Shown one piece after another: positions 47,295 to 64,000 of a stretch of 64,000 bases of DNA (its first letter is position 1; the number at the start of each line of letters is the position of its first letter). The DNA is taken from contig JBBRLX010000002.1 of NCBI GenBank assembly GCA_038231135.1, positions 32,001 to 96,000 of the forward strand, in the 5' to 3' direction. A program made the translations under genes and the position numbers. The notes under the pieces are model-generated. The model was not told where the DNA came from. It saw only the letters and a list, made by a program, of their open reading frames with translations, and did no database searches. The DNA is from Candidatus Eiseniibacteriota bacterium. GTDB lineage: Bacteria > Eisenbacteria > RBG-16-71-46.

Positions 47295-48371
47295 TCAGCC
47301 CGCCGCCTTGCTGCTCTCCCCCGGCCTCACGGTGCCTGCCAGCTCATCGGCGTGGAACGACGAGCGCACCAGCGGCCCCGAGGCGACGCTCTCGAAGCCC
47401 ATCGCCTCGGCCTGGTCGCGCCAGTAGGCGAACCGGTCGGGATGGACGTACTCCACGACGGGCAGGTGCTGCGGCGACGGCCGCAGGTACTGGCCGATCG
47501 TGAGCAGGTCGCAGCCGTGGGCGACCAGGTGCTCGAGCGTGAGCATCAGCTCGTCGTGCGTCTCGCCGAGGCCTAGCATGATCCCCGACTTGGTCTTGAT
47601 GCCGGCGCCGCTCTGCTTCACGCGCTGAAGCAGCTCGAGCGAGCGCGAGTAGCGCGCGCTGGGGCGCACCAGCGGGTGCAGCCGCTCCACGGTCTCGATG
47701 TTGTGGTTGATCACCTCGGGTCGCGCGTCGATCACGCGCTCGAGGTCGTCGGCGTGGCCGCGGAAGTCCGGGATCAGCACTTCGATCACGGTGGTCGAGC
47801 GGCGGCGGATCTCGCGGATCACGTGGGCGAAGATCGTGCTGCCGCCGTCGGCGAGATCGTCGCGCGCCACCGACGTGATCACCGTGTGCCGGAGGCCCAT
47901 GCCCGCCACCGCTTCACCGACGCGGCGCGGCTCGTCCCAGTCGACGTAGCCGTTGGGCCGGCCCGGCGCCACGGCGCAGAATCCGCAGCGACGTGTGCAC
48001 AGGTCGCCGAGGATCATGATCGTCGCGGTGCCGCGCGACCAGCAATGGCCGAGGTTCGGGCAGCGCGCCTCCTCGCACACGGTGACGAGCCGCTGGGACC
48101 GCAGCAGCGCCTTGGTCTCGGCGTATTCGCCCGCGCCCGGCAGCTTCACCTTGAGCCATTCCGGCAGCCGGCGATGCCCGCCCGCGGCCGCCGCGTCGGC
48201 GCCGATCCCCGCCCCCGAGCCCGACGCGCAGCCGCGCGTGCGCGGCGCCACCGGCAGGCGCTGCGGCACCGCGGGCCGCGGCGCGCCGTACACGCGGATC
48301 TCGGGATGGGCTCCGGCGGCCGCCGGAGCCGGCGCAGCGGAGGCGTTCAGGATCGGGAGTTCGTCACTCAT
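47295..48371 (-). CDS. lipA: Lipoyl synthase
   Basis: CEEARCPNLGHC (auxiliary cluster), CTRRCGFC (radical SAM), GQYLRPS, VRSSF. Confidence 0.96.
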   Translation of the reverse strand: MSDELPILNASAAPAPAAAGAHPEIRVYGAPRPAVPQRLPVAPRTRGCASGSGAGIGADAAAAGGHRRLPEWLKVKLPGAGEYAETKALLRSQRLVTVCEEARCPNLGHCWSRGTATIMILGDLCTRRCGFCAVAPGRPNGYVDWDEPRRVGEAVAGMGLRHTVITSVARDDLADGGSTIFAHVIREIRRRSTTVIEVLIPDFRGHADDLERVIDARPEVINHNIETVERLHPLVRPSARYSRSLELLQRVKQSGAGIKTKSGIMLGLGETHDELMLTLEHLVAHGCDLLTIGQYLRPSPQHLPVVEYVHPDRFAYWRDQAEAMGFESVASGPLVRSSFHADELAGTVRPGESSKAAG

Positions 48372-48375
48372 TCTT

Positions 48376-49536
48376 TCAGTCCTTCGCCATGGAGCCGGGC
48401 GTGATGTCGCCGGTGCCCTTGAGCGCCAGCATGCGATCGAGCGCGATGCGCGCGTCGCGGCGGATGTCGTCGGGCACGCGGACCGGGTTCACGACGTGCC
48501 CGGCGGCGAGGTTCTCGAGCGTCCACAGCAGGTGCGCGGGATCGATGCGGTTCATGGTCGCGCACGGGCACACGTTCTTCTGCAGCGAGCGGATGTGCTG
48601 GCCGGGATGCTCCGCCGCCAGCCGGTGGACCAGGTTGATCTCGGTGCCGATCGCCCACGACGCGCCGGCCGGCGCGCGCTCGACCTGCTCGATGATGAAT
48701 TCGGTCGAGCCCACGAGGTCGGCGTTCTGCACCACGTCGTACGGACATTCGGGATGGACCAGCACCTTCACCGCGGGATCGGCGGCCCGGATCTCGTCGA
48801 TCTGGCGGCGTGAGAACTTGGTGTGCACCGAGCAGAACCCGCGCCACAGGATGATGCGCGTCTCCGGGCGGAACGCGCGGGCGTTCACGCCGTCGAGGTC
48901 CTCGACGCGGAAGTCCCACTCCGCCATGTGGTCGAGCGGCACGCCCATCGCGCTCGCGGTGTTGCGGCCCAGGTGCTGGTCGGGGAAGAAGAACACGCGC
49001 GGCTTGCGCGCCCACGCCCACTCGAGCACCGAGCGCGCGTTGGACGACGTGCACACCACGCCGCCGCGGGCGCCGCAAAACGCCTTGAGCGCGGCGGTCG
49101 AGTTCATGTAGGTGATCGGGACGATGGTGTCGCCGTGGACCGCGGTGAGCCGGTCCCACGCCTCTTCCACGTCCTCGATGATCGCCATGTCGGCCATCGA
49201 GCAGCCGGCCTTCATGTCGGGCAGGATCACGGTCTGGTGCGGCTGCCGCAGCACGTCGGCCGATTCGGCCATGAAATGCACGCCGCAGAACACGATGAAC
49301 TCGGCGTCGGGCTGGCCGGCGGCGAGCTGCGCCAGCTTGAACGAGTCGCCGCGCACGTCCGCGAACTCGATCACGCTGTCGCGCTGGTAGTGATGCCCGA
49401 GCACGACGACCCGCTTGCCCAGCGCGCGGCGCGCGGCCCGCGTGCGCTCGCGAATCTCGTCGGCCGCCAGCGTGGCGTAGTCCGAGAACGGGCGGGCGCC
49501 CGGGGCGGGAGGTGCCGTGACGGTGAGCGGGGACAT
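48376..49536 (-). CDS. nadA: Quinolinate synthase
   Basis: GHHYQ, VFCGVHFMAE, AGCSMA, YMNS, CTSSNA, FCSVH, VHPEC, IGTE, CPCATM. Confidence 0.95.
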   Translation of the reverse strand: MSPLTVTAPPAPGARPFSDYATLAADEIRERTRAARRALGKRVVVLGHHYQRDSVIEFADVRGDSFKLAQLAAGQPDAEFIVFCGVHFMAESADVLRQPHQTVILPDMKAGCSMADMAIIEDVEEAWDRLTAVHGDTIVPITYMNSTAALKAFCGARGGVVCTSSNARSVLEWAWARKPRVFFFPDQHLGRNTASAMGVPLDHMAEWDFRVEDLDGVNARAFRPETRIILWRGFCSVHTKFSRRQIDEIRAADPAVKVLVHPECPYDVVQNADLVGSTEFIIEQVERAPAGASWAIGTEINLVHRLAAEHPGQHIRSLQKNVCPCATMNRIDPAHLLWTLENLAAGHVVNPVRVPDDIRRDARIALDRMLALKGTGDITPGSMAKD

Positions 49537-49547
49537 GCCGGGCTCCG

Positions 49548-49988
49548 TCAGTCGAGCTTGCCGGGCACCGGACGCCGCGACGCGAAGCCGCCGTCGAGCG
49601 TGTGCCAGTGCTTCACGTCGGTCTCACCCATCAGCCAGCACAGGAAGATCAGGCGGTCGCCCTTGAGTGAGTAGAAATCGACGAGGCCACGCTCGAGATC
49701 CTTCACGATGCAGCCGCGGCGATGAATGCGCTCGACGCCGTGCCGGATCCGGTCCGCCAGCGCGTCGCGGCGCGCCAGCTGCGCCGTGAGCTCGTGGGCG
49801 TCGGGGTTGTCCGCGCTGGCGCCGGCGATCGCGAGCTGCAACACGTCGATCCGCGACTCCACGCGGCCGAGTTCGCGCCGCGCCTGGACCATGGCCTCCA
49901 ACTCCGGCTGGATCTCCTCCGCGGTGCGGTTCGCCTCGTCGACGGTGAACAGCGTGAGCTTGACCCGCCGCCGGTCAGTGTCCGCCAC
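49548..49988 (-). CDS. DUF2203-like protein
   Basis: 'FTVDEAN', coiled coil, 'KDLERGLVDF...FLCW..GE..V.HWH....GF..R.P'. The start codon is uncertain (GTG overlapping the upstream stop region). Confidence 0.8.
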   Translation of the reverse strand: MADTDRRRVKLTLFTVDEANRTAEEIQPELEAMVQARRELGRVESRIDVLQLAIAGASADNPDAHELTAQLARRDALADRIRHGVERIHRRGCIVKDLERGLVDFYSLKGDRLIFLCWLMGETDVKHWHTLDGGFASRRPVPGKLD

Positions 49989-50379
49989 AGCCACAACCCC
50001 CGCCGCCACAGCCGCAACCCCCGCCCGCATGCGAGTGGGGTTCAGCCGGCGCTTCGTCCGTCTGGAACGAGCGTCCGCAGCCGCAGCCGCTCGATGCCTT
50101 GGGGTTTGTGATCGTGAAACCGGACGCCTGCAGCGTCTCGACGTAGTCGATCTTCGCGCCGTCGAGGAACGTGGCGCTCTGCGGATCGACGAGCACCCGG
50201 ATGCCGCCGAACTCGCCGACCCAGTCGCCGGCTTCCGCCTGCGGGGCCAGCATCATTCCGTATTCGTAGCCCGAACAACCGCCGGCGTGAACCGCCACGC
50301 GCAGCCCGAACACCGGCTCGGTCTGCTGGGCGATGACTTCGACGATCTTGCGGGTCGCGGTATCGGTCACCGTAATCAT
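49975..50379 (-). CDS. A-type Fe-S carrier (IscA/ErpA/HesB family) with His/Cys-rich tail
   Basis: 'MITVTD.A','GGCSGYEY','IDY','NP.A..GCGCGRSF', extra tail HSHAGGGCGCGGGGCGCGGH. Confidence 0.92.
   Translation of the reverse strand: MITVTDTATRKIVEVIAQQTEPVFGLRVAVHAGGCSGYEYGMMLAPQAEAGDWVGEFGGIRVLVDPQSATFLDGAKIDYVETLQASGFTITNPKASSGCGCGRSFQTDEAPAEPHSHAGGGCGCGGGGCGCGGH
49982..50023. repeat. 21-bp tandem repeat (2 copies) encoding the GGGCGCG tail
   Basis: ccgccacagccacaacccccg / ccgccacagccgcaacccccg. Confidence 0.8.
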
Positions 50380-50401
50380 GAGAACTGTCTCCTGATGAGT
50401 T

Positions 50402-51130
50402 TCACGCTGCCGAGCCCCGGAACTCCACGACGCCGGCGATCGGGCGGACCCGTTCCCGCGGCAGCCATTGAAGCGGGTCGAAGCCAAATTCGCCGGCGAA
50501 TTCGCGGGCGACCTGCTCCCGAACCTGTTCCAGGCCCGGCGTTTGCGTTCCTTGCGCTGCACAGCAGGCCGCCAGCGACGTCATGCGCACGCCGCGCAGC
50601 CCGCAAGGGTGGATGAGATCGAAGTCGGCCAGATCGGGCGCTACGTTGAGGGCGAAACCATGATAGCTGACCCAGCGCCGGACCGCGATTCCGATGGACG
50701 CGATCTTGTCGTCGCCCACCCAGACGCCGGTATTGCGGGCCGATCGCCCGGCCACGATGCCGTACGCGGCAAGCGCCTGGATCAGTACTTGTTCGATGCC
50801 CCGCAGGTACTTGTGGAGGTCCCGTCCTCGTGAGTTCAGGTCGAGAATCGGGTACCCGACGAGCTGCCCCGGGCCGTGCCAGGTGACGTCGCCGCCCCGG
50901 GCCACCTCGAACACCTCGATGCCGCGGGCGCTCAGGGTCGCGGGGCTCGCCAGGAGCGCCCCCGCGCTCGGATTCCGGCCCACGGTGAGCACCGGGGGGT
51001 GGTCCGGAAACAGCAGCCAGTCCCCGGTGTCCCCGGCCGCACGGGCCTGTACGAGGCCCTCCTGCAGCTCGAGGCCGTCCCGGTAGGAAGTGGGACCCAG
51101 ATGACAGGCATGGAGCGTGGTCACAGACAC
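50402..51130 (-). CDS. lipB: Lipoyl(octanoyl) transferase
   Basis: HPPVLTVGR, RGGDVTWHGPGQLVGYP, KIASIG, HGFALNV, PCGL. The start may instead be GTG at 51124. Confidence 0.95.
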   Translation of the reverse strand: MSVTTLHACHLGPTSYRDGLELQEGLVQARAAGDTGDWLLFPDHPPVLTVGRNPSAGALLASPATLSARGIEVFEVARGGDVTWHGPGQLVGYPILDLNSRGRDLHKYLRGIEQVLIQALAAYGIVAGRSARNTGVWVGDDKIASIGIAVRRWVSYHGFALNVAPDLADFDLIHPCGLRGVRMTSLAACCAAQGTQTPGLEQVREQVAREFAGEFGFDPLQWLPRERVRPIAGVVEFRGSAA

Positions 51131-51148
51131 GAGCCTATCACCGGCCGC

Positions 51149-51181
51149 AAAAAACCGGGCCGCCCGGAGCCCTGGCCCCGG
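51149..51181 (-). terminator. Intrinsic terminator after the E2 gene
   Basis: Minus strand ccggggcc...ggcccgg imperfect GC stem followed by TTTTTT. Confidence 0.55.
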
Positions 51182-51210
51182 TCATCACCGCCCGATCGTG
51201 ACCGGCCGGC

Positions 51211-52593
51211 TCAGGCGTAGAACCACAGCAGTTCCGGGCGCTCGAGCAGCTCGCAGATCCGCCGCAGGAACTTGACCGCCACCTCGCCGTCGATCACCCG
51301 GTGATCGAACCCGATCGCCAGGTTCATCATCGGCCGCGCGACGATCTGGCCATCGCGAACCACCGCCCGCTCCTGGATCTTGTGGACCCCGAGGATCGCC
51401 ACCTCGGGCACGTTGATCACCGGGGCCGAGTTGATCGCGCCGAACACGCCGGCGTTCGTGATGCTGAACGTGCCGTCCTGGATGTCGTCGGGCTTGAGCC
51501 GTTCGGCACGGGCCCGGGCGGCCAGGTCGTTCACCTCCGCCGCGAGCTGCGCCACGTTCTTGCGGTCGCAGTCCTTGATGTTGGGAACGATCAGCCCCTT
51601 GTCGTCGCGGCCCACGGCCATGCCGATGTTGTAGTACTTCTTGAGCACGATCGCGTCGCCCTTCACCTCGCCGTTCACCCACGGGAATTCCTTGAGCGCG
51701 AACACCGACGCCTTGATGAAGAACGGCATGTAGGTGAGCTTGACGCCGTGCGCCTCGAGCCGGGGCGCGTATTCCTTGCGCAACGCGACCAGCGCGGCCA
51801 TGTCGGCCTCGTCGAAGCAGTGGGTGTGCGCCGCCGTGTGCTTCGCCTTCACCATGTTCTCGGCGATCAGCCGCCGCACCTTGGTGAACGGCACCGTCTC
51901 GGTGCGTTCGCCGGACGCGGCGGGTGCTGCGCTCGCGGTGAGGAACCCCGGCAGCGGCCCGGGCGCGGCGGCCGGAGCCGCCGTACGCGACGGGGCCGCG
52001 GGTGCGGGCGCCGCGGTCCGGTTCTGCAGGTAATCGAGCAGATCGTCGCGCGTCACGCGGCCCGAGACGCCGGAGCCGGCGATGCGCGTCAGCTCGTCGA
52101 GCGCCACGTTCTGCTCGCGCATGATTTTGCGCACCGCGGGCGACAGGCTGCGCTCGTGCTCCAGGTCGGTGCCGTTGCCGGCGCCGGACGCGGCCGCCTG
52201 CAGCGGTGCCGGCGCGCGCGACGCCGCCACGGGCACCCGTGAGCCGCCCGCCGGGGCGGGAGCCGCGGGCGCAGCGGGCGCCGGCGCAGCCGCAGCGGTA
52301 GCCTTCGCGGCCGCGGGCGTCGCGGCGGCGGGAGCGGGCGTCGCGACGGCGTCACCCGCGGACGCGAGCACGCCGATCTCGGTGCCGACGAGCACGGTGG
52401 TGCCTTCCTGCACCACGATCGACTGCAGCGTACCCTCGGCCGGCGACGGGATCTCGACGTTGATCTTGTCGGTCTGGATCTCGACCAGCGGCTCTTCCTT
52501 GCGCACGCGGTCCCCGACCGCCTTGAGCCACTTGGAAACGGTCCCCTCGGCGACGCTCTCCCCGAGCTGGGGCACGACGATGGATACGCTCAT
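51211..52593 (-). CDS. 2-oxoacid dehydrogenase E2 (dihydrolipoamide acyltransferase), single lipoyl domain
   Basis: Lipoyl 'PQLGESV.EG...TDKI', E3-binding 'SP.VRK...GSG..GRVTRDD', catalytic 'FDHRVIDG'. Substrate specificity (PDH, OGDH or BCKDH) cannot be resolved by eye. Confidence 0.93.
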   Translation of the reverse strand: MSVSIVVPQLGESVAEGTVSKWLKAVGDRVRKEEPLVEIQTDKINVEIPSPAEGTLQSIVVQEGTTVLVGTEIGVLASAGDAVATPAPAAATPAAAKATAAAAPAPAAPAAPAPAGGSRVPVAASRAPAPLQAAASGAGNGTDLEHERSLSPAVRKIMREQNVALDELTRIAGSGVSGRVTRDDLLDYLQNRTAAPAPAAPSRTAAPAAAPGPLPGFLTASAAPAASGERTETVPFTKVRRLIAENMVKAKHTAAHTHCFDEADMAALVALRKEYAPRLEAHGVKLTYMPFFIKASVFALKEFPWVNGEVKGDAIVLKKYYNIGMAVGRDDKGLIVPNIKDCDRKNVAQLAAEVNDLAARARAERLKPDDIQDGTFSITNAGVFGAINSAPVINVPEVAILGVHKIQERAVVRDGQIVARPMMNLAIGFDHRVIDGEVAVKFLRRICELLERPELLWFYA

Positions 52594-52684
52594 GATTCCC
52601 TGGCCTCCCCTGAAATCCTCCGCCCGCGGGCGGTATGCGTTGCGGTCGGGTGGCGCCGCGCTGCCTGCGCGGCCCGCGCCGTCG

Positions 52685-53239
52685 TCAATGTCCCACCGGC
52701 AAGTTCGATCCTGTGGCACGCTGCTGGTTGCGATGTTCGAGCCGCACCCGCCGGCGCTCCTTCGCCCGGGAGTGCTCGTCACGCTCGGTGTCGGTTTCGA
52801 GTTGCAGCGGCGGCACCGCGACCGGCCGCCGGGTGATCGCGTCGATCGCCACGAACGTCACGTAGGCGGTGCTCGTGTGGCGTCGCTCCCCGGTCAGGAA
52901 GTCCTCCGAATCGACATCCACGCAGATCTCCATGCTGCTGTGATCGACCAGCGTGATGTGGGCGCGGATCAGCGCGAGCTGGCCCACGAGGATCGGTGCC
53001 TGGAACGACATCTCGTCGATCGCCGCCGTGACCACGGGACAGCGGCTATGCCGACTTGCCACCACCGCGGCGGCCAGATCGATCCAGTGCATCACCGTGC
53101 CGCCGAGCACGCTGCCGTGGACGTTGGCCTGGTGCGGCAGCACCAGCTCCGCCATCTCCGTGGCCGAGTCCGCGACGCGGCGCGGCGGCAGCGCGGTGTC
53201 GGGCGCGGCGAGGATCGGGTCTCCCTTAGGTCGTGGCAC
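52685..53239 (-). CDS. Acyl-CoA thioesterase (hotdog fold, YciA-like)
   Basis: 'VLP..AN.HG...GG..M..ID','VVTAAID...F..PI.VG','SSMEI','AY.TFVAID'. Confidence 0.9.
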   Translation of the reverse strand: MPRPKGDPILAAPDTALPPRRVADSATEMAELVLPHQANVHGSVLGGTVMHWIDLAAAVVASRHSRCPVVTAAIDEMSFQAPILVGQLALIRAHITLVDHSSMEICVDVDSEDFLTGERRHTSTAYVTFVAIDAITRRPVAVPPLQLETDTERDEHSRAKERRRVRLEHRNQQRATGSNLPVGH

Positions 53240-53247
53240 GAATCGGG

Positions 53248-53277
53248 ATTATAGGGACCGGATCGGACGGGGCGCAA
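53248..53277 (-). promoter_or_regulatory. Sigma70 promoter of the thioesterase-E2 unit
   Basis: TTGCGC-N18-TATAAT, with the -10 ending 8 nt before the GTG start. Confidence 0.65.
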
Positions 53278-53296
53278 CGGACGGGGACAACCCATT

Positions 53297-53331
53297 AAAA
53301 CGGCCGGCCGTCCACGAAGGACGGCCGGCCG
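53297..53331 (-). terminator. Rho-independent terminator
   Basis: cggccggccgtcc-5nt-ggacggccggccg perfect 13-bp stem followed by TTTT on the minus strand. Confidence 0.85.
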
Positions 53332-53356
53332 GTGAAACCATGCTGGTTCCGCGACG

Positions 53357-55450
53357 TCAGTCGGTGATGACCGTCCGCGTCGTGCGCACCTCACCGTTCG
53401 CATGCAGACGGTAGAAGTACATGCCCGAGCGCACCTGCTTGCCGCTCGCGTTCAGACCGCTCCAGGACTTCTGATAGATGCCGGCTTCCATCCGGCCGGT
53501 GGCGATCGTCGCCACGTGACGGCCGAAGATGTCGTACACGCCGAGGTCGACCTGCGTCGCCCGCGGCAGCGAGAACTGGAAGTTCACCGTACGCGCCGGG
53601 TTCGGGAACGCGGAGAACGACAGCGCTCCCGCGAACTGCGATCCGACACCCGCCGGGTTCTTGATCACGATGTCGGCCTGCGACCTGGGAGCCACCCGGA
53701 AGCTGGGGGTGCTGGTGCTGGTCGTGTAGTGGATCACGCCGGTCACATCGACCAGCGTGCCGGGTGCGGGATAGCTCGCCGCGACATTCGGGCCGAGCAC
53801 CAGGTTGATGTTCTCGCAGAACATCGTGTCCGGGTACAACGGCGCCGGACCGGCGACGTGGAAGCCGGTGGTCGGCAGCGGGATGAACCGCTGAACCACC
53901 TTCACGTTCTGCAGCTTGACCAGCTCGGACAGGTAGTCACGCGCGCTGTTGATGTTCTGGTCGGCGTCGCAGGTGTCGTAGCTGGCGAGCGCGATCCGCA
54001 TCTTGATCGGCGCCGGAACGCCCGGCGTGCCGACGTCGCGCACGTACTGGACGGACGCGAACTCGTTCTCACTGAAGAACTCCTCGGACGCGCCGGCGAT
54101 CACGTACTGGTGACCCAGGGTCAGCGCGACCGGCGGTGCGAACACCGTGATGCCGCGGTGGTCGGCGGCCGGGCTCAACGGAGTCGGATCTTCCATGTAG
54201 TACAGGTTGCCAAACACGCCCGTCACAATGCCGGTCACCGTCGAGCGCGGTCCGAACAGGCCGTTCGTGAACTGGCCGAGCGCGCCCGCGTAATTGGACT
54301 TGTCGTGGCAGGGATTCGCGGCGAGCGAATCGGGGTTCGGCGACGACATCTGACCGGTGGTGAGCAGACCGGCGAGGAACGTGGAATTCACCGGCGTCGT
54401 CATGGTCTTGTTGTTGGCGACGCCCGTGATGCCATTGACCTGGATGGTTTCCTGCGAGCCGTCCAGCAGACCGGTCGTCACGTTGAGAATCACCGCACTC
54501 GTGCCGTCCATCACCGCCGAATTCACGGTGCCGAACGAAGCCAGCGTGTAGTTGGCCGTGTTCGTGGCGGTGCCCACGGTCACGTCGCGGTCGAACACGA
54601 CGCGGTACTGCGTGTCGGTGATCGAGTACGCGTCGGAGACACCGGGCGGCACGTTGTCGATGATGTCGGCGGCGTCACGCGGCATGATGCGGAATCCGCG
54701 CGTCGCCTCATTGCCGATGCCGGACACCTGGGTCAGGATCGTGCCCAGCGCCGGCGGCACGATGGTCGTGAGCTTGCCGAAGTCGAGGAACACCGAGTCG
54801 CTCGGGGCCGCGTCGCGGACGACGAGGCAGGCCTTGAACAGGTTCGAGTCGCCGACGCGCGCCACGCGGACGGGGCCGGTGAGCCTCACCAGCGCGCTCA
54901 CGTAGGGGGCGAACGTGGTGTTGGTGGGCAGCTCGTTCAGGTCCGTGGTATTGCCGGAGAAGAATCCCGGCAGCGGACGGCCGCTGACGATCTTGCGGAG
55001 CACGATGTTCGGGCTCGAGAAGTTGTTGTTCGGGGCCTCGAGCTCGGTGTCGCCGGCGAACTGGGCGACGCGCGCGAACTCGACGCGGATCGAGTCACCG
55101 CGCTGGAAGTTGTAGACCGGCCGCATGTTCGTGCCGTGGGTGAACACGTCGATACCGCTGTTCTGTCCGCCCGACGACTGCTGGATGTAGACATCGAAGC
55201 CGGTCGGGTTTTCGTCGAAGCCGGTGATGATGCCGCCGACACCGTTCACAGTGTCACCGATGGCGCCCGCGGCGCCGGTCTGCGGCGCGCAGGAGGCTGC
55301 GGTGTTCAGCAGCGACTTGAGGCGAATGATCGACAACGTATCCGTACATGTGACGTGATCCGAATTCGGATACGACGTAAACGCAAACGCGGCACTGGCT
55401 ACGATCAACATCGTGGCCGCGCCAAGAGCAGTAACAAGCAACTTCCTCAT
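53357..55450 (-). CDS. Secreted protein with tandem YhcR/ExeM-like OB folds, an Ig-like domain and a FlgD/T9SS-like CTD
   Basis: Signal peptide (AFA|F); two 'G..TG....Y.(Q/E).....GI.VF.....G....(V/I).....(Q/E)F....E' plus 'LV.L...V...G.....F...PR..ADI' pairs; 'V.FDRDV....A.N.ANY' Ig domain; CTD 'AFPNP...YDIFGR.V...WSG....G..V.SGMYF'. Confidence 0.85.
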   Translation of the reverse strand: MRKLLVTALGAATMLIVASAAFAFTSYPNSDHVTCTDTLSIIRLKSLLNTAASCAPQTGAAGAIGDTVNGVGGIITGFDENPTGFDVYIQQSSGGQNSGIDVFTHGTNMRPVYNFQRGDSIRVEFARVAQFAGDTELEAPNNNFSSPNIVLRKIVSGRPLPGFFSGNTTDLNELPTNTTFAPYVSALVRLTGPVRVARVGDSNLFKACLVVRDAAPSDSVFLDFGKLTTIVPPALGTILTQVSGIGNEATRGFRIMPRDAADIIDNVPPGVSDAYSITDTQYRVVFDRDVTVGTATNTANYTLASFGTVNSAVMDGTSAVILNVTTGLLDGSQETIQVNGITGVANNKTMTTPVNSTFLAGLLTTGQMSSPNPDSLAANPCHDKSNYAGALGQFTNGLFGPRSTVTGIVTGVFGNLYYMEDPTPLSPAADHRGITVFAPPVALTLGHQYVIAGASEEFFSENEFASVQYVRDVGTPGVPAPIKMRIALASYDTCDADQNINSARDYLSELVKLQNVKVVQRFIPLPTTGFHVAGPAPLYPDTMFCENINLVLGPNVAASYPAPGTLVDVTGVIHYTTSTSTPSFRVAPRSQADIVIKNPAGVGSQFAGALSFSAFPNPARTVNFQFSLPRATQVDLGVYDIFGRHVATIATGRMEAGIYQKSWSGLNASGKQVRSGMYFYRLHANGEVRTTRTVITD

Positions 55451-55589
55451 GGGAACACCTCTCGTTGAAGTGGGACCGGGTTGCGACACGTACTCTTAGC
55501 GCTCGTTTGGAAGGCGGTACCTCGTTGCACTCCCGCAACTCTCGCGCAGACGAGAAGTTGGTGTGCGAAGATTGGACAAGCCCATGCAA

Positions 55590-55598
55590 AGCATAACA
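55590..55598 (-). promoter_or_regulatory. Extended -10 promoter element for the OB-fold gene
   Basis: TGtTATGCT on the minus strand, about 140 bp upstream of the ATG in a lower-GC spacer. Confidence 0.45.
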
Positions 55599-55762
55599 AG
55601 CCGCGACGGGATGGGTCGAACAAAATGCATGAGTCGCTTGAGTTTCGACCGTGTAACGAGTTCGCGGAATCGGGGGAGAGTTTCAGGGTTCGAAACTTCG
55701 ATCGCCGCTGTGAACCGATGCTACCTGAACCACACAAAGGGTAGGGTCAGACGACCCTTCCG

Positions 55763-57208
55763 TCAAGGCCCAGTCAATCCCAGCAGCCCGAAAATCTTGA
55801 GGAGGACGAGGCTCGCACGCTGACCCGCGACCGCCGTTCCCGACACCATGGGGTAGGTATCCACGATCATCCGGCCCCCATGCGGCTGCGGCACGTTGAG
55901 ACCGACCGCCATGTCGATCGCATTGTCCTGCGAAAACGTGTGGGCGGGGACCACAGCGAGGATCTGCGAGGCGTCGCGGGTCAGGAACCCGCGCATGCCG
56001 CCGACGATGCGCCGGTTCACGAGGCTGTCCGAGAGCGTCGGGAACAGCACGGTTCCGGAACCGGACAGCCCCCATGCCGCCGACGAGTCGGGCACGGGGA
56101 AGAACTGGAACACCCCGGCGCAGTTGAGATACCGGTCCGCGAAGTCCAGGGACAACGCCCCGTTCGTGTTCGGCGTCGCGATCAGGGCGAGCGACTCGAT
56201 GAGCATGCGGCCGCCCTGGTCCAGGTAGGGGCCGATTCCGTCCCCGAAGCTCCCCAGCGTTTTCGAGGACAACGTCTGTTCGCCGTGATACCAGACCACG
56301 GTCTCGAACTGGTCGAGCGTCTGCTCGAGGTCCCTGGCCGACCGGAACGGCTGATTCACCGCCAGGTGCAGCACCGACCAGTCGCCGGCCAGGAGCCCGG
56401 CGTTCGCGATGGCATGGACGTAGAGCGTGTCGTTGCGGAACTTCGCCGCATCGTTGCTGGGCAGGTCGTCCACGAGCAGCAGCCGGGCCCGGGCCCCCGT
56501 GACCGGGGCGCGGACGTACCACCGCACGCTGTCGACCGAGCCGAGCATGCCGCCGTCGTCGATGCCCTGGATGTAGAGCGTGCGGAAGCCCGACTTATAG
56601 ACGCCGTTCTCGAGAAACTTGGCGCTCGGCAGCGTGAACGTGAAGCTGTTCGCGACCACCGCCTCGTCCTCGTGCCCGTTGAGCCACACGCGGCTCACGA
56701 CCTTGTTGGCGTCGCCGTCGGGATCCGACACCGTCCACTGGATGGTGATCGACGCGAACGTGGTGTCGGAGCGGTCGGCCGAGTTCGGCTTGGTGACGAT
56801 CCGCACCACGGGCGGGGTGTTCCTGAAGTTGAACACCTGGTGCGCCGGGTCCGGGTCCTTCACGCCCTTGTCGTCGATCGCGCGCGCCTCGAACACCGCA
56901 GACGTGAATCCGGTCGGGGCGAGCACCGTGATCAGGCTGTCGGTGAGCGTCGTGAACCGCCACGCGGAGTCGGCCGGAGCCGCGGGGTTGAGCAAGCGGA
57001 CTTCGTAGCCGGCGATATAGCCGCCGGCCTCGGTTCCGAACCAGTGCATGTGGACGACGTGGTTCACGGTGTCCACCGGTCCCTGGATGAAGATGATCGT
57101 GTGCGGCGCGGAATTCGGGCGCAGGACGCCCTTGATCCCGCACCCGGCCACGGCGAGTGCCGCGAGCGCGAGCCCCGCCCAGAGTCCCTCCATCGAGATC
57201 CGGCGCAT
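55763..57208 (-). CDS. Lipoprotein with two Ig/FN3-like domains and a C-terminal alpha/beta domain
   Basis: Lipobox 'VAGC'; 'N.AP.T','W.G......I.GYE','FEARAIDD.G..DP.PA','N.PP.V','DPDGD'; 'RLLLVDD...VVWYHGE...YLDQGG'. Confidence 0.85.
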   Translation of the reverse strand: MRRISMEGLWAGLALAALAVAGCGIKGVLRPNSAPHTIIFIQGPVDTVNHVVHMHWFGTEAGGYIAGYEVRLLNPAAPADSAWRFTTLTDSLITVLAPTGFTSAVFEARAIDDKGVKDPDPAHQVFNFRNTPPVVRIVTKPNSADRSDTTFASITIQWTVSDPDGDANKVVSRVWLNGHEDEAVVANSFTFTLPSAKFLENGVYKSGFRTLYIQGIDDGGMLGSVDSVRWYVRAPVTGARARLLLVDDLPSNDAAKFRNDTLYVHAIANAGLLAGDWSVLHLAVNQPFRSARDLEQTLDQFETVVWYHGEQTLSSKTLGSFGDGIGPYLDQGGRMLIESLALIATPNTNGALSLDFADRYLNCAGVFQFFPVPDSSAAWGLSGSGTVLFPTLSDSLVNRRIVGGMRGFLTRDASQILAVVPAHTFSQDNAIDMAVGLNVPQPHGGRMIVDTYPMVSGTAVAGQRASLVLLKIFGLLGLTGP

Positions 57209-57210
57209 GA

Positions 57211-59199
57211 TCAGAAGTTCTCCCGGTCGGATTTCACGATCAGGAACTTGCCGGTCTGCCGCTTCTTCGTGCGCTTGTCCTCGATCGCCCACATGTAGAG
57301 CCCGGTCGCCGCGGCCTGGCTCTGGCGGGTGATGAGGTCCCAGCCGAACGTGGTCCCCGACAGCACCGCCTTCACGTCGGTGCCGGGGCGGAAGATGCCC
57401 CGGGCATTGCGGCCGTCGTACGTCGCGCCGTTGAAGTCGGTCTCGAACACCAGGTCCCCGGATAGCGTGTAGATGTGGATCGTGCATTCGGTCGGCAGGT
57501 TCGCGAACCACAGGTAATGGTCCCGCGCCTGTTGCGCCCGGTCCCACGACGTCTCGACGCGATAGGGGTTCGGGAACACCGTCACGCTGTTCGGGGCGAC
57601 CTCGCCGGGTGCCGGCGCCGGCACCCCCGCCAGCTCGTTCTGGGCGAAGCCGCTCTCGAGCGACTCGATGTCCTGGGTGCCGAGATCGTAGGCCGTCACC
57701 GCGGTGAAGTACTTGAAGCCGTCGCGGAGGTGATCGATCGTGAACCGGTAGTGGTAGGTGACGCCGTCGATCACCAGCGGCTGGGCCAGCCGCACGGCAT
57801 CGAGGCCGGTGTTGAACCCGGTGGTGTCGTTGACGCCCCCCTTGAGGTCGAACTGCGCCGCCTGGTCCAGCGAGTCGCGGCTGCTGCCGATGTAGATGCG
57901 GTAGCCCTCGAAGTCCTTGCCGATCGGGCTCGTGCGGTCGATGAAGTTCTCCGCCGAATCGTCCCAGTAGTAATCGAGCGCATGATCCCTCGCCACGACC
58001 TTGAACTGCGGGGAGGGCGGCGGCACGGGCACGATGTAGTGGAGGTCGTAGGCGCGCTGGGCGGTGACCGCCCGCTTCGCGAGTTCCGCCGCAGTCGTGC
58101 CGCCGATGTAGGCGAAGTCCACGGAGATGCTGTCGCCCGGATTGACCGTGAAGAACGGCCCTACGGCCAACAGGCTCACGGGATCGCCGGTCCCCGGCGC
58201 GAGGCTGTCGGGCAGCGGGTTGAGATTGGTCTTGAGGCCGCTCGCCATCAGCACGTACTTGAGCGAGTCCTCGGAGCGTGCCGGATCGCCCGGGGCATAG
58301 TTCCAGGCCTGGAACGTGACCCGCTTGTCGGTGGTGTCGCTGACGTTGCCGGGCTTGACCCCGAGCAGCTTCATGCCCACCAGCTCCGGCACCAGGTCGA
58401 ACCGGCATTGCGCGGGGAACGGCCGGCCCTGGCAGAACCGCTCCGTCTCCATGCTCAGCGAGTCCACGTAGCCGATGAGCTTCTTCGAGAACCACCCGCT
58501 CGGCGGCACCTGGCTCTGCAGCCGCATGTTGCCGCTCGCGAACTCGTCGTACATGCCGAAGTACAGGCCGCGCAGCGGCGGGCCGTCGTTCTTGATGACG
58601 TAGTGGAAGATGACGAAGTGCGCGTAGTCGGAGAACGACCACGCGAACGTGTACTGGGTCACGATCACATTCAGCGGGCGGTGGCGCTTGCGGCGGTCGG
58701 CCGGGCGGTCGCTGTACTGCGAGATGTAGTCGGTCTCGCTGATCGCATCGCGATCGAAGAACCGGCTGTTCGGCAGCGTCGACCGCGCGCCGACCGACAG
58801 GCCGGCGGGGGTGAATTCGCTGGCGGCGGCGCTGCTGGAGCCGGCCGAACCGTCCTCGGCCGCGATCGTGACGCCGATGAACGCGCCGTCCTCGTCCGCC
58901 GACAGCGCGCCGATCCACGGGCCGCCGCGCACCATGTGCATGTGGCTCGAGCCCAGCGGGTATTCGAACGACGGCGCGAACGACGAGAAGTTCGTGCCGA
59001 TGAAGCCGTAGTTCGTGAGCGTCATGCCCACCTTGTTCGCGGTCAGCACGCGGGCGGCATACTGGATCGAATCGCCGGTGGCCGTGACGCGCTCCGCACC
59101 GTACGGTTCGGGAAGCAGCGGATGGTCCACGGCGGCGCGCGCGGAGGTGGCGAGCAGGGCGGCCGCGGCCGTCGCGAGCAGGATCGAACGGGTATGCAT
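57211..59199 (-). CDS. Large secreted protein with FN3-like domain and variant CTD
   Basis: Signal peptide; 'N.VGM.LTNYG..G...FEYP','P.PP.SP','DFEGYRIY','Y..AVTAYD','LESG','VFPNPY...F.NLP..CTI.IYTLSGDLV...WDL.T...Q..ATGLY...GKFLIVK'. Confidence 0.85.
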   Translation of the reverse strand: MHTRSILLATAAAALLATSARAAVDHPLLPEPYGAERVTATGDSIQYAARVLTANKVGMTLTNYGFIGTNFSSFAPSFEYPLGSSHMHMVRGGPWIGALSADEDGAFIGVTIAAEDGSAGSSSAAASEFTPAGLSVGARSTLPNSRFFDRDAISETDYISQYSDRPADRRKRHRPLNVIVTQYTFAWSFSDYAHFVIFHYVIKNDGPPLRGLYFGMYDEFASGNMRLQSQVPPSGWFSKKLIGYVDSLSMETERFCQGRPFPAQCRFDLVPELVGMKLLGVKPGNVSDTTDKRVTFQAWNYAPGDPARSEDSLKYVLMASGLKTNLNPLPDSLAPGTGDPVSLLAVGPFFTVNPGDSISVDFAYIGGTTAAELAKRAVTAQRAYDLHYIVPVPPPSPQFKVVARDHALDYYWDDSAENFIDRTSPIGKDFEGYRIYIGSSRDSLDQAAQFDLKGGVNDTTGFNTGLDAVRLAQPLVIDGVTYHYRFTIDHLRDGFKYFTAVTAYDLGTQDIESLESGFAQNELAGVPAPAPGEVAPNSVTVFPNPYRVETSWDRAQQARDHYLWFANLPTECTIHIYTLSGDLVFETDFNGATYDGRNARGIFRPGTDVKAVLSGTTFGWDLITRQSQAAATGLYMWAIEDKRTKKRQTGKFLIVKSDRENF

Positions 59200-60386
59200 C
59201 ACGGGCGCCTCTTGTAGCGGATCACCTGACCCCGGCCCAGGTCGGCGACGTACGCCAGGGAGTCGTCGACACCGATGGCGATGGGATCGAGCAGCGGCAG
59301 GTTGTCGGAATTCTTCTCGATGTTCACGTCCTGCAGGTAGGTACCGTAGGTGTCGTACCGGACGATTCGCTGGTTGTGCCGGTCGACCACGTACAGGAAG
59401 CCGGACTCGTCGACGGCGACACCCTGCGGGGCGTCGAAGCTGGTGCCGGTGGGCGTCTCGCTGCCGTCCACCTTCGTGATCCCGACGCCGGCCAGCGTGG
59501 TCGCGATCAGCTTCGCCTTGTTGTTGCCACGGTCGGCCACGAACACCGCGCCCCCGCGCGTCGGCGTCCACGTGGTCCCGCGCGGATCGGACACCGACGA
59601 GTTGCCGGTGCCGTCGAGCACCACCCAGGTGGTGTCCCGGTGCCAGTTCGCCCCCGGCATGTGGATGTCACCGATGCCCGGATACTTGGGACCCGGCGCG
59701 TAGCGGTAGACCCGCGAGATGAACTTGCGGGTGCGGATGCGCGGGTCGACCATCGAGGTGTCGAGCACCACGGCGATGCCGGATACGTAGACGTTGCCCA
59801 GGTCGTCGGCCGCGATGCCGTTGACGACCGCGATCGTGGTGTCGGTGAACGTCGACACCGTGTCGCCGCCGCTGATGCCGTATTCGCGCACCCGCCAGAT
59901 CGCCGAGTAGTCGAGGACGATGCTGGGCCGGCCGTCGTGCACGGTGTCCGGGCGGCAGGTGCCGCGCTCGGGGTCGAACTTGGCGAGGCACGAGTCGCCC
60001 TCGTCGAGCACGAACAGCTTGTTCCGGGCCGACGCGATCGCGACCGGATTGAACAGCGTCCGCGGCGCGTTGAAGAACGGCGAGCCGATCGGCACCGGCT
60101 GGGTGAACGGATACAGCCGGACTTCGCCGCGCGGGGTCTGCGGTCCGCCGCTGCCGCCGTGGTTGAACAGCAGGAACAACTGGGAGCCGGTGCCGCGCGT
60201 GATCATCACGTCGCGGATGCCGTCGAGGCCCTTCCACGTCGCCAGCATGGCGTAGCTCTTGTCGCTCGGCACCGGGGCGTTGTTGCGGCGCTCGGTCGGC
60301 AGCTCGAACTTGCCGCCGCAGCCGGCGGCGAGCCCGATCGCGAGCAATCCCACGCCCACTCCCGCCAGCACGCTCGCGCGGCGCAT
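59199..60386 (-). CDS. NHL-repeat lipoprotein
   Basis: Lipobox 'AAGC'; 'F.NP.AIA','GIAADD.GNVYV','VFVADRGN','F.APQGVAVDESG.LYVVD..N.RI'. Confidence 0.85.
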   Translation of the reverse strand: MRRASVLAGVGVGLLAIGLAAGCGGKFELPTERRNNAPVPSDKSYAMLATWKGLDGIRDVMITRGTGSQLFLLFNHGGSGGPQTPRGEVRLYPFTQPVPIGSPFFNAPRTLFNPVAIASARNKLFVLDEGDSCLAKFDPERGTCRPDTVHDGRPSIVLDYSAIWRVREYGISGGDTVSTFTDTTIAVVNGIAADDLGNVYVSGIAVVLDTSMVDPRIRTRKFISRVYRYAPGPKYPGIGDIHMPGANWHRDTTWVVLDGTGNSSVSDPRGTTWTPTRGGAVFVADRGNNKAKLIATTLAGVGITKVDGSETPTGTSFDAPQGVAVDESGFLYVVDRHNQRIVRYDTYGTYLQDVNIEKNSDNLPLLDPIAIGVDDSLAYVADLGRGQVIRYKRRP

Positions 60387-61396
60387 CAGAACGTCACCCC
60401 GAGCGAGAACCGGTGGATGGCGCCGAGGAAGCCGCCGTCGGTGTACGCGTAATCGAGCGTGCCGTGCAGCGAGGCCAGGTCGCCCGCGAAGCCGGCGCCG
60501 GCGCTGAACTTGAGATCGTCGGAATTGAAGTTGTAGCCGGTGCGCAGCGCGAACACGCGGCGGATCGACCACTCCGCGCCCGCCTTCATCTGCTGGCGGT
60601 TGTCGGCAGGCTGATTCATCTCGATCGCCGTGGTCAGGCGGTTCGTCGAGTTCTCGATCGGTTCGAACGCCAGTCCGTACCGGAAGCTGAGCGGCGGGTC
60701 GAACCCGTCGTACTGCCGCACCTCGCCGCTGTAGGGCGACACGTAGCGGCCGGCCGGCTTCAGCTCGGAGCCGAAGTTCGACAGCGAGGTCGCGATCCGG
60801 ATGCTGCCGATGCCGAGATAGAAGATGGAGCCCACATCGTAGAGGATGGCGCTGGTGGTCGGGCCGCCGAGCTGGGAACCCAGGTCCTCGCGGATGTACT
60901 TGGCCCCCACGCCGACCAGCAGCTTGTCGGTCCAGCGCCGCGCGTACGCCGCGCCGGCGACGAAGTCGGAGTAGGTGAACTGCCGGCCGGTGCCGAACGG
61001 ATCGAGGTCGGTCGTCTCCTGGACGGTGGTGCCGAGCACGCCGAACTGCAGGCCGATCGAGCCGCCGAGCCGCTTTGACGGGATCACCAGCGTGAGGTGG
61101 TCGTAGTGGATGTCGGCCGGCCAGTCGGCGTGCGACTCCGAGATCACCCGGCGCTGCAGCGATGCCAGCCCGGCGACGTTCCAGTAGATCGCGCTGGGGT
61201 CGTTCGCCACCGCGACGAACGTCTCCCCCATGCCGGTGGCGCGTGCCCCGACGCCGATGCGCAGGAACGTGCCCGACGCGGTGCCCGCGCGCTGCCCGCC
61301 GAGGTCGTTCTGGGCCGACGCCGGAGCGTGCGCCAGCATCAGCCATAGCCCCGCGGCCACCGCGGCCCGCAACAGCCGGCGATCAGAAGTCGACAT
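60386..61396 (-). CDS. PorV/PorQ-family outer-membrane beta-barrel
   Basis: 'AGT....FLRIGVGARATGMGE.FVA.AND.SAIYWN.AGL','D.G......N.G','GAEW....FALR.GY','DYAY...G.LG..HRFSL..TF' with C-terminal Phe. Confidence 0.9.
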   Translation of the reverse strand: MSTSDRRLLRAAVAAGLWLMLAHAPASAQNDLGGQRAGTASGTFLRIGVGARATGMGETFVAVANDPSAIYWNVAGLASLQRRVISESHADWPADIHYDHLTLVIPSKRLGGSIGLQFGVLGTTVQETTDLDPFGTGRQFTYSDFVAGAAYARRWTDKLLVGVGAKYIREDLGSQLGGPTTSAILYDVGSIFYLGIGSIRIATSLSNFGSELKPAGRYVSPYSGEVRQYDGFDPPLSFRYGLAFEPIENSTNRLTTAIEMNQPADNRQQMKAGAEWSIRRVFALRTGYNFNSDDLKFSAGAGFAGDLASLHGTLDYAYTDGGFLGAIHRFSLGVTF

Positions 61397-63998
61397 CGAG
61401 CTGCAACCTCCATTGGGCGCCGGGGCCGTAGTTCGACGGGTCGTCGACCGTGCCGGTCCGGACGAAATCATTGAGGCCGTTGACGTGGTTCGGATCGAAG
61501 GCGCCCTTGCCCCATACGTAACCCTGGCCGGTGACCGGATCCACCCGGTAGATCAGATGGGCGTTGAAGATGTTGGTGCCCTGGACACTCAGGTCGAACC
61601 GGCGGCTCATCAGCTGGAAGTAGTGATTCAGCTTGAGGTCCGTCGTGATCTGGAACGGCGCATTCTGCGAATACGGCAGGCCGATCGGGTTCTGACGCGA
61701 GATGTCGGACGGCGTGTAGGCGCGACCCGACGTGCCCTGCACGAACAGGTTGAGGCCGGTCTGCTTGAGGAAGCCGAATCCGTGCGGGGCTTCCTTGTCG
61801 TACCGCACGTCGAAGTTCGCGGACACCTTGTGCGGCCGGTTCCAGCTCACGAACACCTCGGACAGGCGGGTCTCCGAGCTGCCGCCGATCTCCTGCAGCG
61901 CCCGCTCCTCGTTCGGATTGCTGCTCTTGCCCTTGGTCTGCTGGTACGAATACGACAGCTTCGCCGACCAGTGGTTCGAGCGCCGCTTCTCGACCTCGAC
62001 CTCGAGCCCCTTGGATCGCGAGAAGTGCCCGTTGAGATAGATGAAGTACGACTGGATGTTCGTGCCGCTGAGCGGGTCGACGCGGGTCGCGCTGGGATAG
62101 TCGTAGACGTCACGCACGAAGAACGTGAGATTCACCGCCGCGGTCGGCAGGAACTGGTGTTTGGCGCCGACCTCGTAGTTCACCGAGATCTGCGGGTTCA
62201 GGTTCGGGTTGCCCTGCAGCGGGAACGACTCGCTCGAGATCGAGTTGAGCTTCGAATAGACGTAGCGGTACGACGGGATCTGGGTGAACTGCCCGTAGTT
62301 GAAGAAGAAGCTGCTGTTCTCGGTGATCGGATGCGACACGATCACGCGCGGCGACACGTGGACCTTCGTGCGCCGGCCGAACAGCGACTGGGTCTCGCTG
62401 TAGAAGCCGTTGCGCTCCTCGGCGGCGATGTTGTGGCGCGCGGTGTCGGCGAGCGCCGCCTCGGCTTCGCGCCCGATCACCCAGTAGTCGGCGCGCACGC
62501 CGACGTTGGCGACGAAGCCCTCGTACTCCAGCCGGTCGCGCAGGAACAGGTCGCCGATCCACGGGTGCGCGATCCACAGGTCGTGCGACTGCCCGAGCCC
62601 GTTCTTGTCGAAGATCCACGGATACTCGATGTCGAGGTACTGGACGGTCTGGAACTGGTGCTCGATGCCGAACTCGACCTCGTTGTGGTGCATGCGCTGG
62701 GTGAGGTTCCAGTTGAGTCCCCAGCTCGTCGTGCGACGGTCCGCCCACTGATAGTTGTCGCCGGTGTCGTTGAAATAGTCGTTCCGGCGCGGATCGCCGA
62801 CGGGGAAGCTGCGATCGTCGGGTTCGACGAAGTCCTGCCACATCTTGCCGCCGACGTCCTGGCGCTGGGCGTAGAAGTACCGCGAGATCTGGGCTTCGGT
62901 GTAGCCGGTGGTCGACAGCGTGCGCCGCCACTGCAGCTCCGACGTGACGTTGTCCTCGAAGAACGTGGCGGCGTGGTCGATGCGGTGCGCCCACTGCCAC
63001 GGGTACGCGGGGTCGCCGAGATCGCCCTGCGCCGAGAGGAACGTGCGGCTGAAGCCCTGGTCGATCGCGATGCGCTTCGAGTACGAGTAGTTGAGCTTGT
63101 CGGTGTCGTTGGGTTTCCACTGCAAGCCATAGCGGCCGGCCCAGCGGTTGTCCTGCGACGGCGACCAGTAGTCGGGGTAGGTGAACTTGTGGCCGAAGAA
63201 CGAGTCCTCGTAGCTGGACTTGAGCCGCGGATGCAGATAGGGCGGCAGCAGCGTGCGATCGAGCAGGCTCGCGTTCTTGTCGTTGAGGTAGCTGAACCGG
63301 GTCTCGAACAACGATCCCGACACGTCGAGAATCGTCGAGAACGAACCGGGCAGATGGATGCCGACGCGGTTCAGGAGCGGTGTCCACAGCGGATCGGGGC
63401 CGCTGGTGACGAGCTGCCACGCCCGCCCGCCGTAGCTGCCCGACGATGTCGTGAGGCCGAGCTGGAACTTGTCGGTGCCGTCCTTGAGCTTGATCTCGAC
63501 CACGCCGGACAGCGCGTTGCCGTAGCGCACGTCGTAGGCGCCGGTGGCAACGTTGACCTCGGACACCGAGCGCGCGTTGAGCTGGCCCGCCGTGGACTGG
63601 CCGGTGACGAGATCGCGGTTCGCGACGCCGTTCACGACGAACACCGTCTCGTCGGCGCGGCCGCCGCGGATGTGGATCTGCTCCGCGTCGGTGCTGACGC
63701 CGGCCTGCTGCTGCAGCACGTCGCCCACCGTGGTGACCGCCAGGTTGCGGATGTCGTTCGCGGTGACGCTGCGGAGCGTGGCGCCCTGCTTCACCTCGAC
63801 GAGACGCCGCTCGGCCGTGACCTCGACGGTCTTCTCCTCGCGCACAATGATGTCCTCGAGCTGGAAGTTCACCGGGATCGGCTTGCCGGCGGTGACCACG
63901 ACTCCCGGCTGCGAGCCGGGCTTGTAGCCGAGGAACTGGACGCGCACTTCATAGGTGCCGACCGGCACGCCCGTCACGAGGTAGTCGCCCTCGGAGCT
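61383..63998 (-). CDS. TonB-dependent receptor, SusC-like with N-terminal carboxypeptidase-regulatory-like domain (5' partial)
   Basis: 'VPVGTYEV...FLGY', plug 'IHIRGGR.DE...V.G','TGAYD..YGNALSGVV', barrel 'SPR...SHPI','GNPNL.P....YE.G', C-terminal Phe. Frame is open to the window edge. Confidence 0.93.
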   Translation of the reverse strand, partial: SSEGDYLVTGVPVGTYEVRVQFLGYKPGSQPGVVVTAGKPIPVNFQLEDIIVREEKTVEVTAERRLVEVKQGATLRSVTANDIRNLAVTTVGDVLQQQAGVSTDAEQIHIRGGRADETVFVVNGVANRDLVTGQSTAGQLNARSVSEVNVATGAYDVRYGNALSGVVEIKLKDGTDKFQLGLTTSSGSYGGRAWQLVTSGPDPLWTPLLNRVGIHLPGSFSTILDVSGSLFETRFSYLNDKNASLLDRTLLPPYLHPRLKSSYEDSFFGHKFTYPDYWSPSQDNRWAGRYGLQWKPNDTDKLNYSYSKRIAIDQGFSRTFLSAQGDLGDPAYPWQWAHRIDHAATFFEDNVTSELQWRRTLSTTGYTEAQISRYFYAQRQDVGGKMWQDFVEPDDRSFPVGDPRRNDYFNDTGDNYQWADRRTTSWGLNWNLTQRMHHNEVEFGIEHQFQTVQYLDIEYPWIFDKNGLGQSHDLWIAHPWIGDLFLRDRLEYEGFVANVGVRADYWVIGREAEAALADTARHNIAAEERNGFYSETQSLFGRRTKVHVSPRVIVSHPITENSSFFFNYGQFTQIPSYRYVYSKLNSISSESFPLQGNPNLNPQISVNYEVGAKHQFLPTAAVNLTFFVRDVYDYPSATRVDPLSGTNIQSYFIYLNGHFSRSKGLEVEVEKRRSNHWSAKLSYSYQQTKGKSSNPNEERALQEIGGSSETRLSEVFVSWNRPHKVSANFDVRYDKEAPHGFGFLKQTGLNLFVQGTSGRAYTPSDISRQNPIGLPYSQNAPFQITTDLKLNHYFQLMSRRFDLSVQGTNIFNAHLIYRVDPVTGQGYVWGKGAFDPNHVNGLNDFVRTGTVDDPSNYGPGAQWRLQLDVDF

Positions 63999-64000
63999 CG

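Follow-up and report, generated by a model that had tools for sequence, protein, structure and literature searches.

Several described systems pair an outer-membrane protein with a partner at the cell surface. In the SusC/SusD (RagA/RagB) pair of Bacteroidota, a TonB-dependent receptor is covered by a SusD lipoprotein lid, and in a DNA-utilisation locus of Bacteroides thetaiotaomicron the receptor DdbC stands with the tandem-OB partner DdbD (10.1101/2025.03.18.642099). Small barrels that hold surface proteins are described from the secretion system of type IX (T9SS), where, in the attachment complex of Porphyromonas gingivalis, PorZ is held by PorQ and PorU by PorV (PMC5562754), the tails of PorZ and PorU being uncleaved (PMC11285876). 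For T9SS cargo, cognate PorP/SprF shuttles have been reported for type-B C-terminal domains (CTDs) and one common PorV for type-A cargo (PMC12618676). Here we describe a locus in a 64,000-nucleotide stretch (the window, G000:C2:32001-96000) from a Candidatus Eiseniibacteriota bacterium (phylum Eisenbacteria), whose source genome, G000, is 93% complete. Six co-directional genes encode a TonB-dependent receptor, a small barrel of the PorV/PorQ family, an NHL-propeller lipoprotein, a partner protein with a variant T9SS tail, an Ig lipoprotein and a tandem-OB protein. We think it somewhat probable that together they encode an outer-membrane importer in which a private barrel keeps the secreted partner beside the receptor, with DNA or RNA fragments as the probable substrate.

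The receptor resembles SusC in being a TonB receptor with an N-terminal CarboxypepD-type domain that is co-encoded and co-inherited with surface proteins. Profile search found its TonB barrel (PF00593, E 1e-18) together with a plug and a CarboxypepD_reg domain, and with the TonB genes of the genome this identifies it as a TonB-dependent transporter; a stretch ahead of the plug resembles what we take to be a TonB box. It lies outside the SusC models, as no specific NCBIfam family matched it and its 871-residue in-window part, with 15 NCBIfam matches, did not match SusC/RagA TIGR04056. The genome holds 14 TonB-receptor and nine TonB_C matches, and an orthologue of this receptor scoring above 700 bits occurs in 37 of 61 genomes of the phylum, mostly in single copy. 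The upstream part of the operon has been retrieved, placing the start of the receptor gene at G000:C2:96178, 178 bases past the window. A SusD gene just beyond that edge was rejected, the gene directly upstream of the receptor being an adenosine deaminase; profile search found SusD neither upstream of the receptor nor in G000, and SusD_RagB matched 0 of the 61 phylum genomes in a search whose positive control matched. The lack of a SusD beside the receptor, which the original prediction had claimed, thus stands, and the locus differs from SusC/SusD also in its constant partner, where a protein of T9SS type that has a barrel of its own takes the place of a lipoprotein.

The five genes first reported, all on the minus strand, are as tightly packed as the prediction had stated: the receptor stop (61383-85) and the barrel ATG (61394-96) give an overlap of 14 bp, the junctions of barrel and NHL gene (60384-88) and of NHL and partner gene (59197-201) are TGATG, and 2 bp (57209-10) separate the partner gene from the Ig lipoprotein gene, whose stop lies at 55763. 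These five are not the whole operon. A sixth co-directional gene follows 312 bases past the Ig lipoprotein gene and belongs to the conserved unit, and right behind it stands a terminator-like hairpin with a 13-pair stem, the only such site in 53000-56000, a region for which shuffled sequence averages 1.7 weaker or equal sites. The features are collected in Table 1.

Table 1. Features of the locus in window coordinates.
Feature	Position	Strand	Details
TonB-dependent receptor	61383..64000	-	931 aa; signal peptide, CarboxypepD_reg, plug, barrel
PorV/PorQ-family small barrel, receptor-linked clade	60386..61396	-	NF033709 171.5 bits
NHL beta-propeller lipoprotein, Cys23	59199..60386	-	NHL E 6.5e-12
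Partner (CTD) protein	57211..59199	-	signal peptide, beta-supersandwich, FN3-like domain, variant T9SS tail
Ig lipoprotein, Cys23	55763..57208	-	FN3/Ig-like domains and C-terminal domain without assignment
Sixth gene	53357..55450	-	two tandem-OB modules, Ig domain, ordinary type-A CTD
Intrinsic-terminator-like hairpin	53301..53331	-	consensus match only

Conservation of this gene set was followed in two phyla. Among 40 Eisenbacteria regions at the best partner matches, all six genes stand in this order in 24, nine are cut by contig ends and seven hold a lone partner paralogue, while 20 further regions, representing 18 loci, have the first five genes in 17 and are cut in one; of the 16 further loci with room for the OB gene, 14 have it. 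A scan of GTDB with an Ignavibacteria-led alignment confirmed at least 705 stretches, of which the best 69 loci, nearly all from Ignavibacteria and as kin non-independent, were analysed. There the order is partner, OB protein, Ig lipoprotein, receptor, barrel and NHL lipoprotein. All six genes occur in 48 of these 69 loci; where the downstream flank is complete (49 loci), 47 have all six and the remaining two carry fragmented genes. Synteny is therefore conserved, and the fact that the set has stayed together while its order changed between the phyla points to a functional unit. In many of the Ignavibacteria loci (L072-L139, flank-cut) a further CTD-like open reading frame lies behind the NHL gene.

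The receptor, the partner tail and the barrel were also compared by trees over 39 triads, two loci (L164 and L170) being excluded as lacking a receptor in range or as fragmented. Pairwise distances of the three genes correlate at 0.62-0.74, which none of 500 permutations reached, and at 0.77-0.82 when only the 11 paralogues of a single genome are compared. The barrel tree repeats 18 of the 22 supported receptor splits, subfamilies extend over phylum borders, and each of the three trees groups the six-gene type, so the three genes are inherited as one unit.

By profile score the small barrel is a member of the PorV family (cut-off 90 bits for NF033709, PorV_fam), and it falls below the equivalog cut-offs of PorQ, PorV2 and PorV, reaching 59.5 of 250 bits for the last. 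PorV-family matches number 6-18 per genome. G000 has eight such genes, four of them in triads of receptor, partner and barrel (on C2, C35, C8 and C3) and one, on C30, behind PorU; the latter is 26% identical to the operon barrel. A tree of 69 barrels unites every one of the 32 with a triad label, together with one of the 37 others, in one clade (support 0.999), the labels coming from neighbouring genes and including one locus with the partners but its receptor out of range; the 13-member clade of the PorU-linked barrel is separate (support 0.996). The operon barrel was hence ruled out as the single general PorV of the genome, by its separate clade and by the PorU linkage of another paralogue. 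Five genomes whose PorV-family matches are listed in full gave 45 regions, 20 of which are triads, and one genome has up to 11. The triad is no one-off, being a repeated module with four copies in G000 itself.

A variant CTD in the co-encoded protein was likewise borne out, since the tail is shared by only seven of the 159 CTD-bearing proteins of G000, four in triads and three outside them. The profile used for this count was partly built from the seven proteins themselves, and one built from alignment A1 alone ranks the same seven first, at 56-170 bits against 36 or less for the rest. The only Protein Data Bank sequence matches of the partner tail are the tails of PorZ (E 8e-4) and PorU (E 2e-3), and against CHU_C it scores 14.5 bits with a cut-off of 27. 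The AlphaFold model of the partner (pLDDT 91.6, pTM 0.86) contains a predicted non-catalytic supersandwich over about residues 48-388, and a Foldseek search with it returned sandwich domains of GH94 and GH116 enzymes, FN3 arrays and PorZ, the last at rank 2; an ESM Atlas search with the N-terminal domain gave only unnamed clusters. An enzymatic role was rejected, as the model has no catalytic helical barrel. In nine loci (L037, L039, L040, L045, L046, L053, L055, L217 and L220) the partner gene is present twice, the additional copy lying between adenosine deaminase and receptor and being 43-47% identical to the partner of the window where measured; at such loci two partners may share one barrel.

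These properties bear on which T9SS precedent fits. The original prediction had named type-B cargo with its cognate PorP/SprF barrel as background, and the locus does share with that system one co-encoded barrel per cargo protein (PMC12618676). It was set aside in that the barrel here is of the PorV family and the tail lies below the CHU_C cut-off; PorP/SprF (PF11751) had 0 matches in G000 in a search in which no positive control matched, and no absence is claimed. Since the partner tail is closest to the uncleaved tails of PorZ and PorU, PorQ-PorZ, along with PorV-PorU, appears the better precedent, with a PorV/PorQ-family barrel on one side and, going by weak matches, a PorZ/PorU-like tail on the other. 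The likeness has limits, in that the barrels here form a separate clade, are multiplied within genomes and are tied to TonB receptors, and the partner is a supersandwich-FN3 protein rather than a sortase or a propeller for lipopolysaccharide delivery.

We hold with reasonable confidence that the locus encodes an import complex with a barrel-anchored partner. The partner would leave the cell through SprA, keep its PorZ/PorU-like tail and remain on a barrel of its own in the manner of PorZ and PorQ, and its supersandwich would reach over the receptor as a lid or scaffold; we infer that it is held next to the receptor in place of SusD. The two lipoproteins would be accessory subunits specific to the six-gene subfamily. 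Both are lipoproteins by their lipobox Cys23, which 60 of 63 and 59 of 59 sequences in the alignments of orthologues retain (fn3 is detected in 18 of 63 Ig-lipoprotein orthologues), while their accessory role, claimed from the start, is one view of them, as both are genuine rival candidates for the lid. The same import complex might use the NHL propeller, in the manner of BtuG, or the Ig lipoprotein as its lid, the barrel-anchored partner then being a mere accessory binder. In B. thetaiotaomicron, lipoprotein lids other than SusD are reported on nine of the 18 receptors that are not SusC (10.1101/2023.03.17.533168), and the resemblance extends to conserved lipoproteins beside a non-SusC receptor, one of them a beta-propeller; moreover, receptor, barrel and NHL gene are contiguous in both the Eisenbacteria and the Ignavibacteria order. 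On the other hand, the remaining three triads of G000 and most triads elsewhere lack such lipoproteins and keep the partner. For the BtuG-type systems that source mentions neither a PorV-family barrel nor a CTD protein, a term search for PorV giving 0 matches. We regard a lipoprotein lid as unlikely.

If such a barrel-anchored complex exists, a nucleic-acid substrate seems rather probable. The sixth gene is the only substrate clue within the unit. Its product is predicted to carry four OB folds, arranged as two tandem-OB modules that are homologous to each other (hhalign 99.9%), besides an Ig domain and a type-A tail, and no nuclease domain was found in it. The OB module has a match (E 8e-9) to the OB pair of an EEP nuclease of solved structure, at the N-terminal part of PDB 9SF8/9SF9; this nuclease is SpnA, in which the resolved OB3-OB4 are among the domains needed for DNA binding (PMC13601614). 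The modules also match the DUF5689 domains of neighbouring proteins (E 5e-17), and in eight loci of one family, two of them domain-scanned, a gene with DUF5689, a double PLD and a CTD follows the OB gene. In the present genome adenosine deaminase and RpiB lie upstream of the receptor on the same strand, with uridine-kinase-family, thymidine kinase and PnrA-like genes on the opposite strand; in the first set of loci adenosine deaminase is seen 19 times and RpiB 17 times. Among 11 class-level genomes the gene directly upstream is a DeoC-family aldolase in seven, amidohydrolase and RpiB in two and nothing relevant in two. The OB folds, along with nearby genes for nucleases, adenosine deaminase, RpiB and DeoC-family enzymes, accordingly point to nucleic acid, though not in Ignavibacteria. 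The four-OB protein would be exported as ordinary type-A cargo and bind nucleic acid, nucleases encoded alongside in some relatives would cut it, TonB would drive import, and the deaminase, RpiB and DeoC-family enzymes would use the products. The ddbABCDEF locus is alike in its six genes, its non-SusD TonB receptor and its tandem-OB (DUF5689-like) protein; the comparison is one of gene content and not of DdbC homology, and here the core lacks a nuclease, the OB protein is T9SS cargo instead of a lipoprotein, and a PorV-family barrel and partner are added (10.1101/2025.03.18.642099). The locus thus resembles both SusC/SusD and ddb in its proposed working and belongs to neither.

Elsewhere in G000 the same tandem-OB module is found at C2:3251-8230 (1659 aa, with a type-A tail) and C44:20339-21130 (263 aa), and one relative has a TonB gene immediately behind the sixth gene (L063:16295-16939). 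Next to the operon in both phyla lie lipoate and 2-oxoacid dehydrogenase genes (LipA, LipB and E2, named by sequence appearance), on its downstream side here (window 47295-53239) and on its upstream side in Ignavibacteria (L072-L139).

Several observations count against a barrel-anchored importer of nucleic acid. Congruent trees are also expected from duplication of whole loci and say nothing of contact, and two to three supported splits conflict in each pair of trees. The PorZ and PorU tail matches are weak, and three variant-tail proteins of G000 have neither barrel nor receptor alongside (C2:176563-177687, C24:50027-52402, followed by lipoprotein-like genes, and C16:30411-32780). As for the substrate, no nuclease lies within this operon, DUF5689 itself matches only one of 66 OB proteins, PF01791 also holds other aldolases, and common descent alone may account for the linkage to RpiB. 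Two of the 16 further loci with room lack the OB gene, its absence falling in one family, no conserved nucleotide-salvage neighbour exists within 9 kb of the Ignavibacteria loci, which adjoin the lipoate and dehydrogenase genes, and the modelled fold of the partner is that of accessory domains of glycan enzymes. The absence of the OB gene in one family and the fold of the partner, with the flanking of the locus by lipoate and dehydrogenase genes in both phyla, would suit the same architecture with a glycan, a peptide or a cofactor as substrate, in which case the salvage genes and the OB protein would be incidental. Retention of the OB gene across two phyla, the differing sets of nucleoside-catabolic genes upstream and the OB and PLD gene behind the locus in one family speak for nucleic acid instead, and such another substrate is in our judgement unlikely.

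The secretion background of the genome raises a further alternative. SprA is present, PorU scores above its cut-off and about 150 proteins are type-A cargo, so that the sprA and porU parts of a T9SS are in place. The porKLMN motor, in contrast, was not matched (GldM in 0 of 41 and 0 of 5 genomes, GldN and GldL in G000), in searches in which no positive control matched, and absence is not claimed; that no motor to energise export was matched also weighs against our model, and a T9SS with an unfamiliar motor is possible. The receptor might then serve to export or energise T9SS cargo rather than import nutrients, presumably in the way of PorF or Oar. A TonB-dependent export route is listed in reviews (PMC9127263). 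Besides the lack of a control in the motor searches, the receptor orthologue is missing from many phylum genomes that have PorV-family genes, and triads occur in many, varied copies, as nutrient importers do. We consider an export role very improbable.

Taken as an importer with a barrel-anchored partner, the operon is a real, conserved and apparently undescribed variant of lid-assisted TonB import; the literature, searched at title and abstract level with thin coverage of subscription journals, yielded no description of the triad or of the six-gene unit. Among the relatives of Bacteroidota are whole phyla that, like the one searched here, possess TonB receptors and T9SS parts and no SusD. A barrel-anchored partner, if true, would explain how they capture polymers as well as the many PorV-family matches per genome, and PorV paralogues would gain a role beyond shuttling. 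More tentatively, the triad could be a third general design of outer-membrane importer, with a T9SS-exported, barrel-anchored protein as lid and the six-gene form as an ancient single-copy version for nucleic-acid capture, predating or paralleling SusC/SusD across the Fibrobacteres-Chlorobi-Bacteroidetes (FCB) phyla. The six-gene form would offer a testable route for the use of extracellular DNA and RNA by abundant soil and sediment bacteria, with orthologous loci in Ignavibacteria, a lineage that has cultured members.

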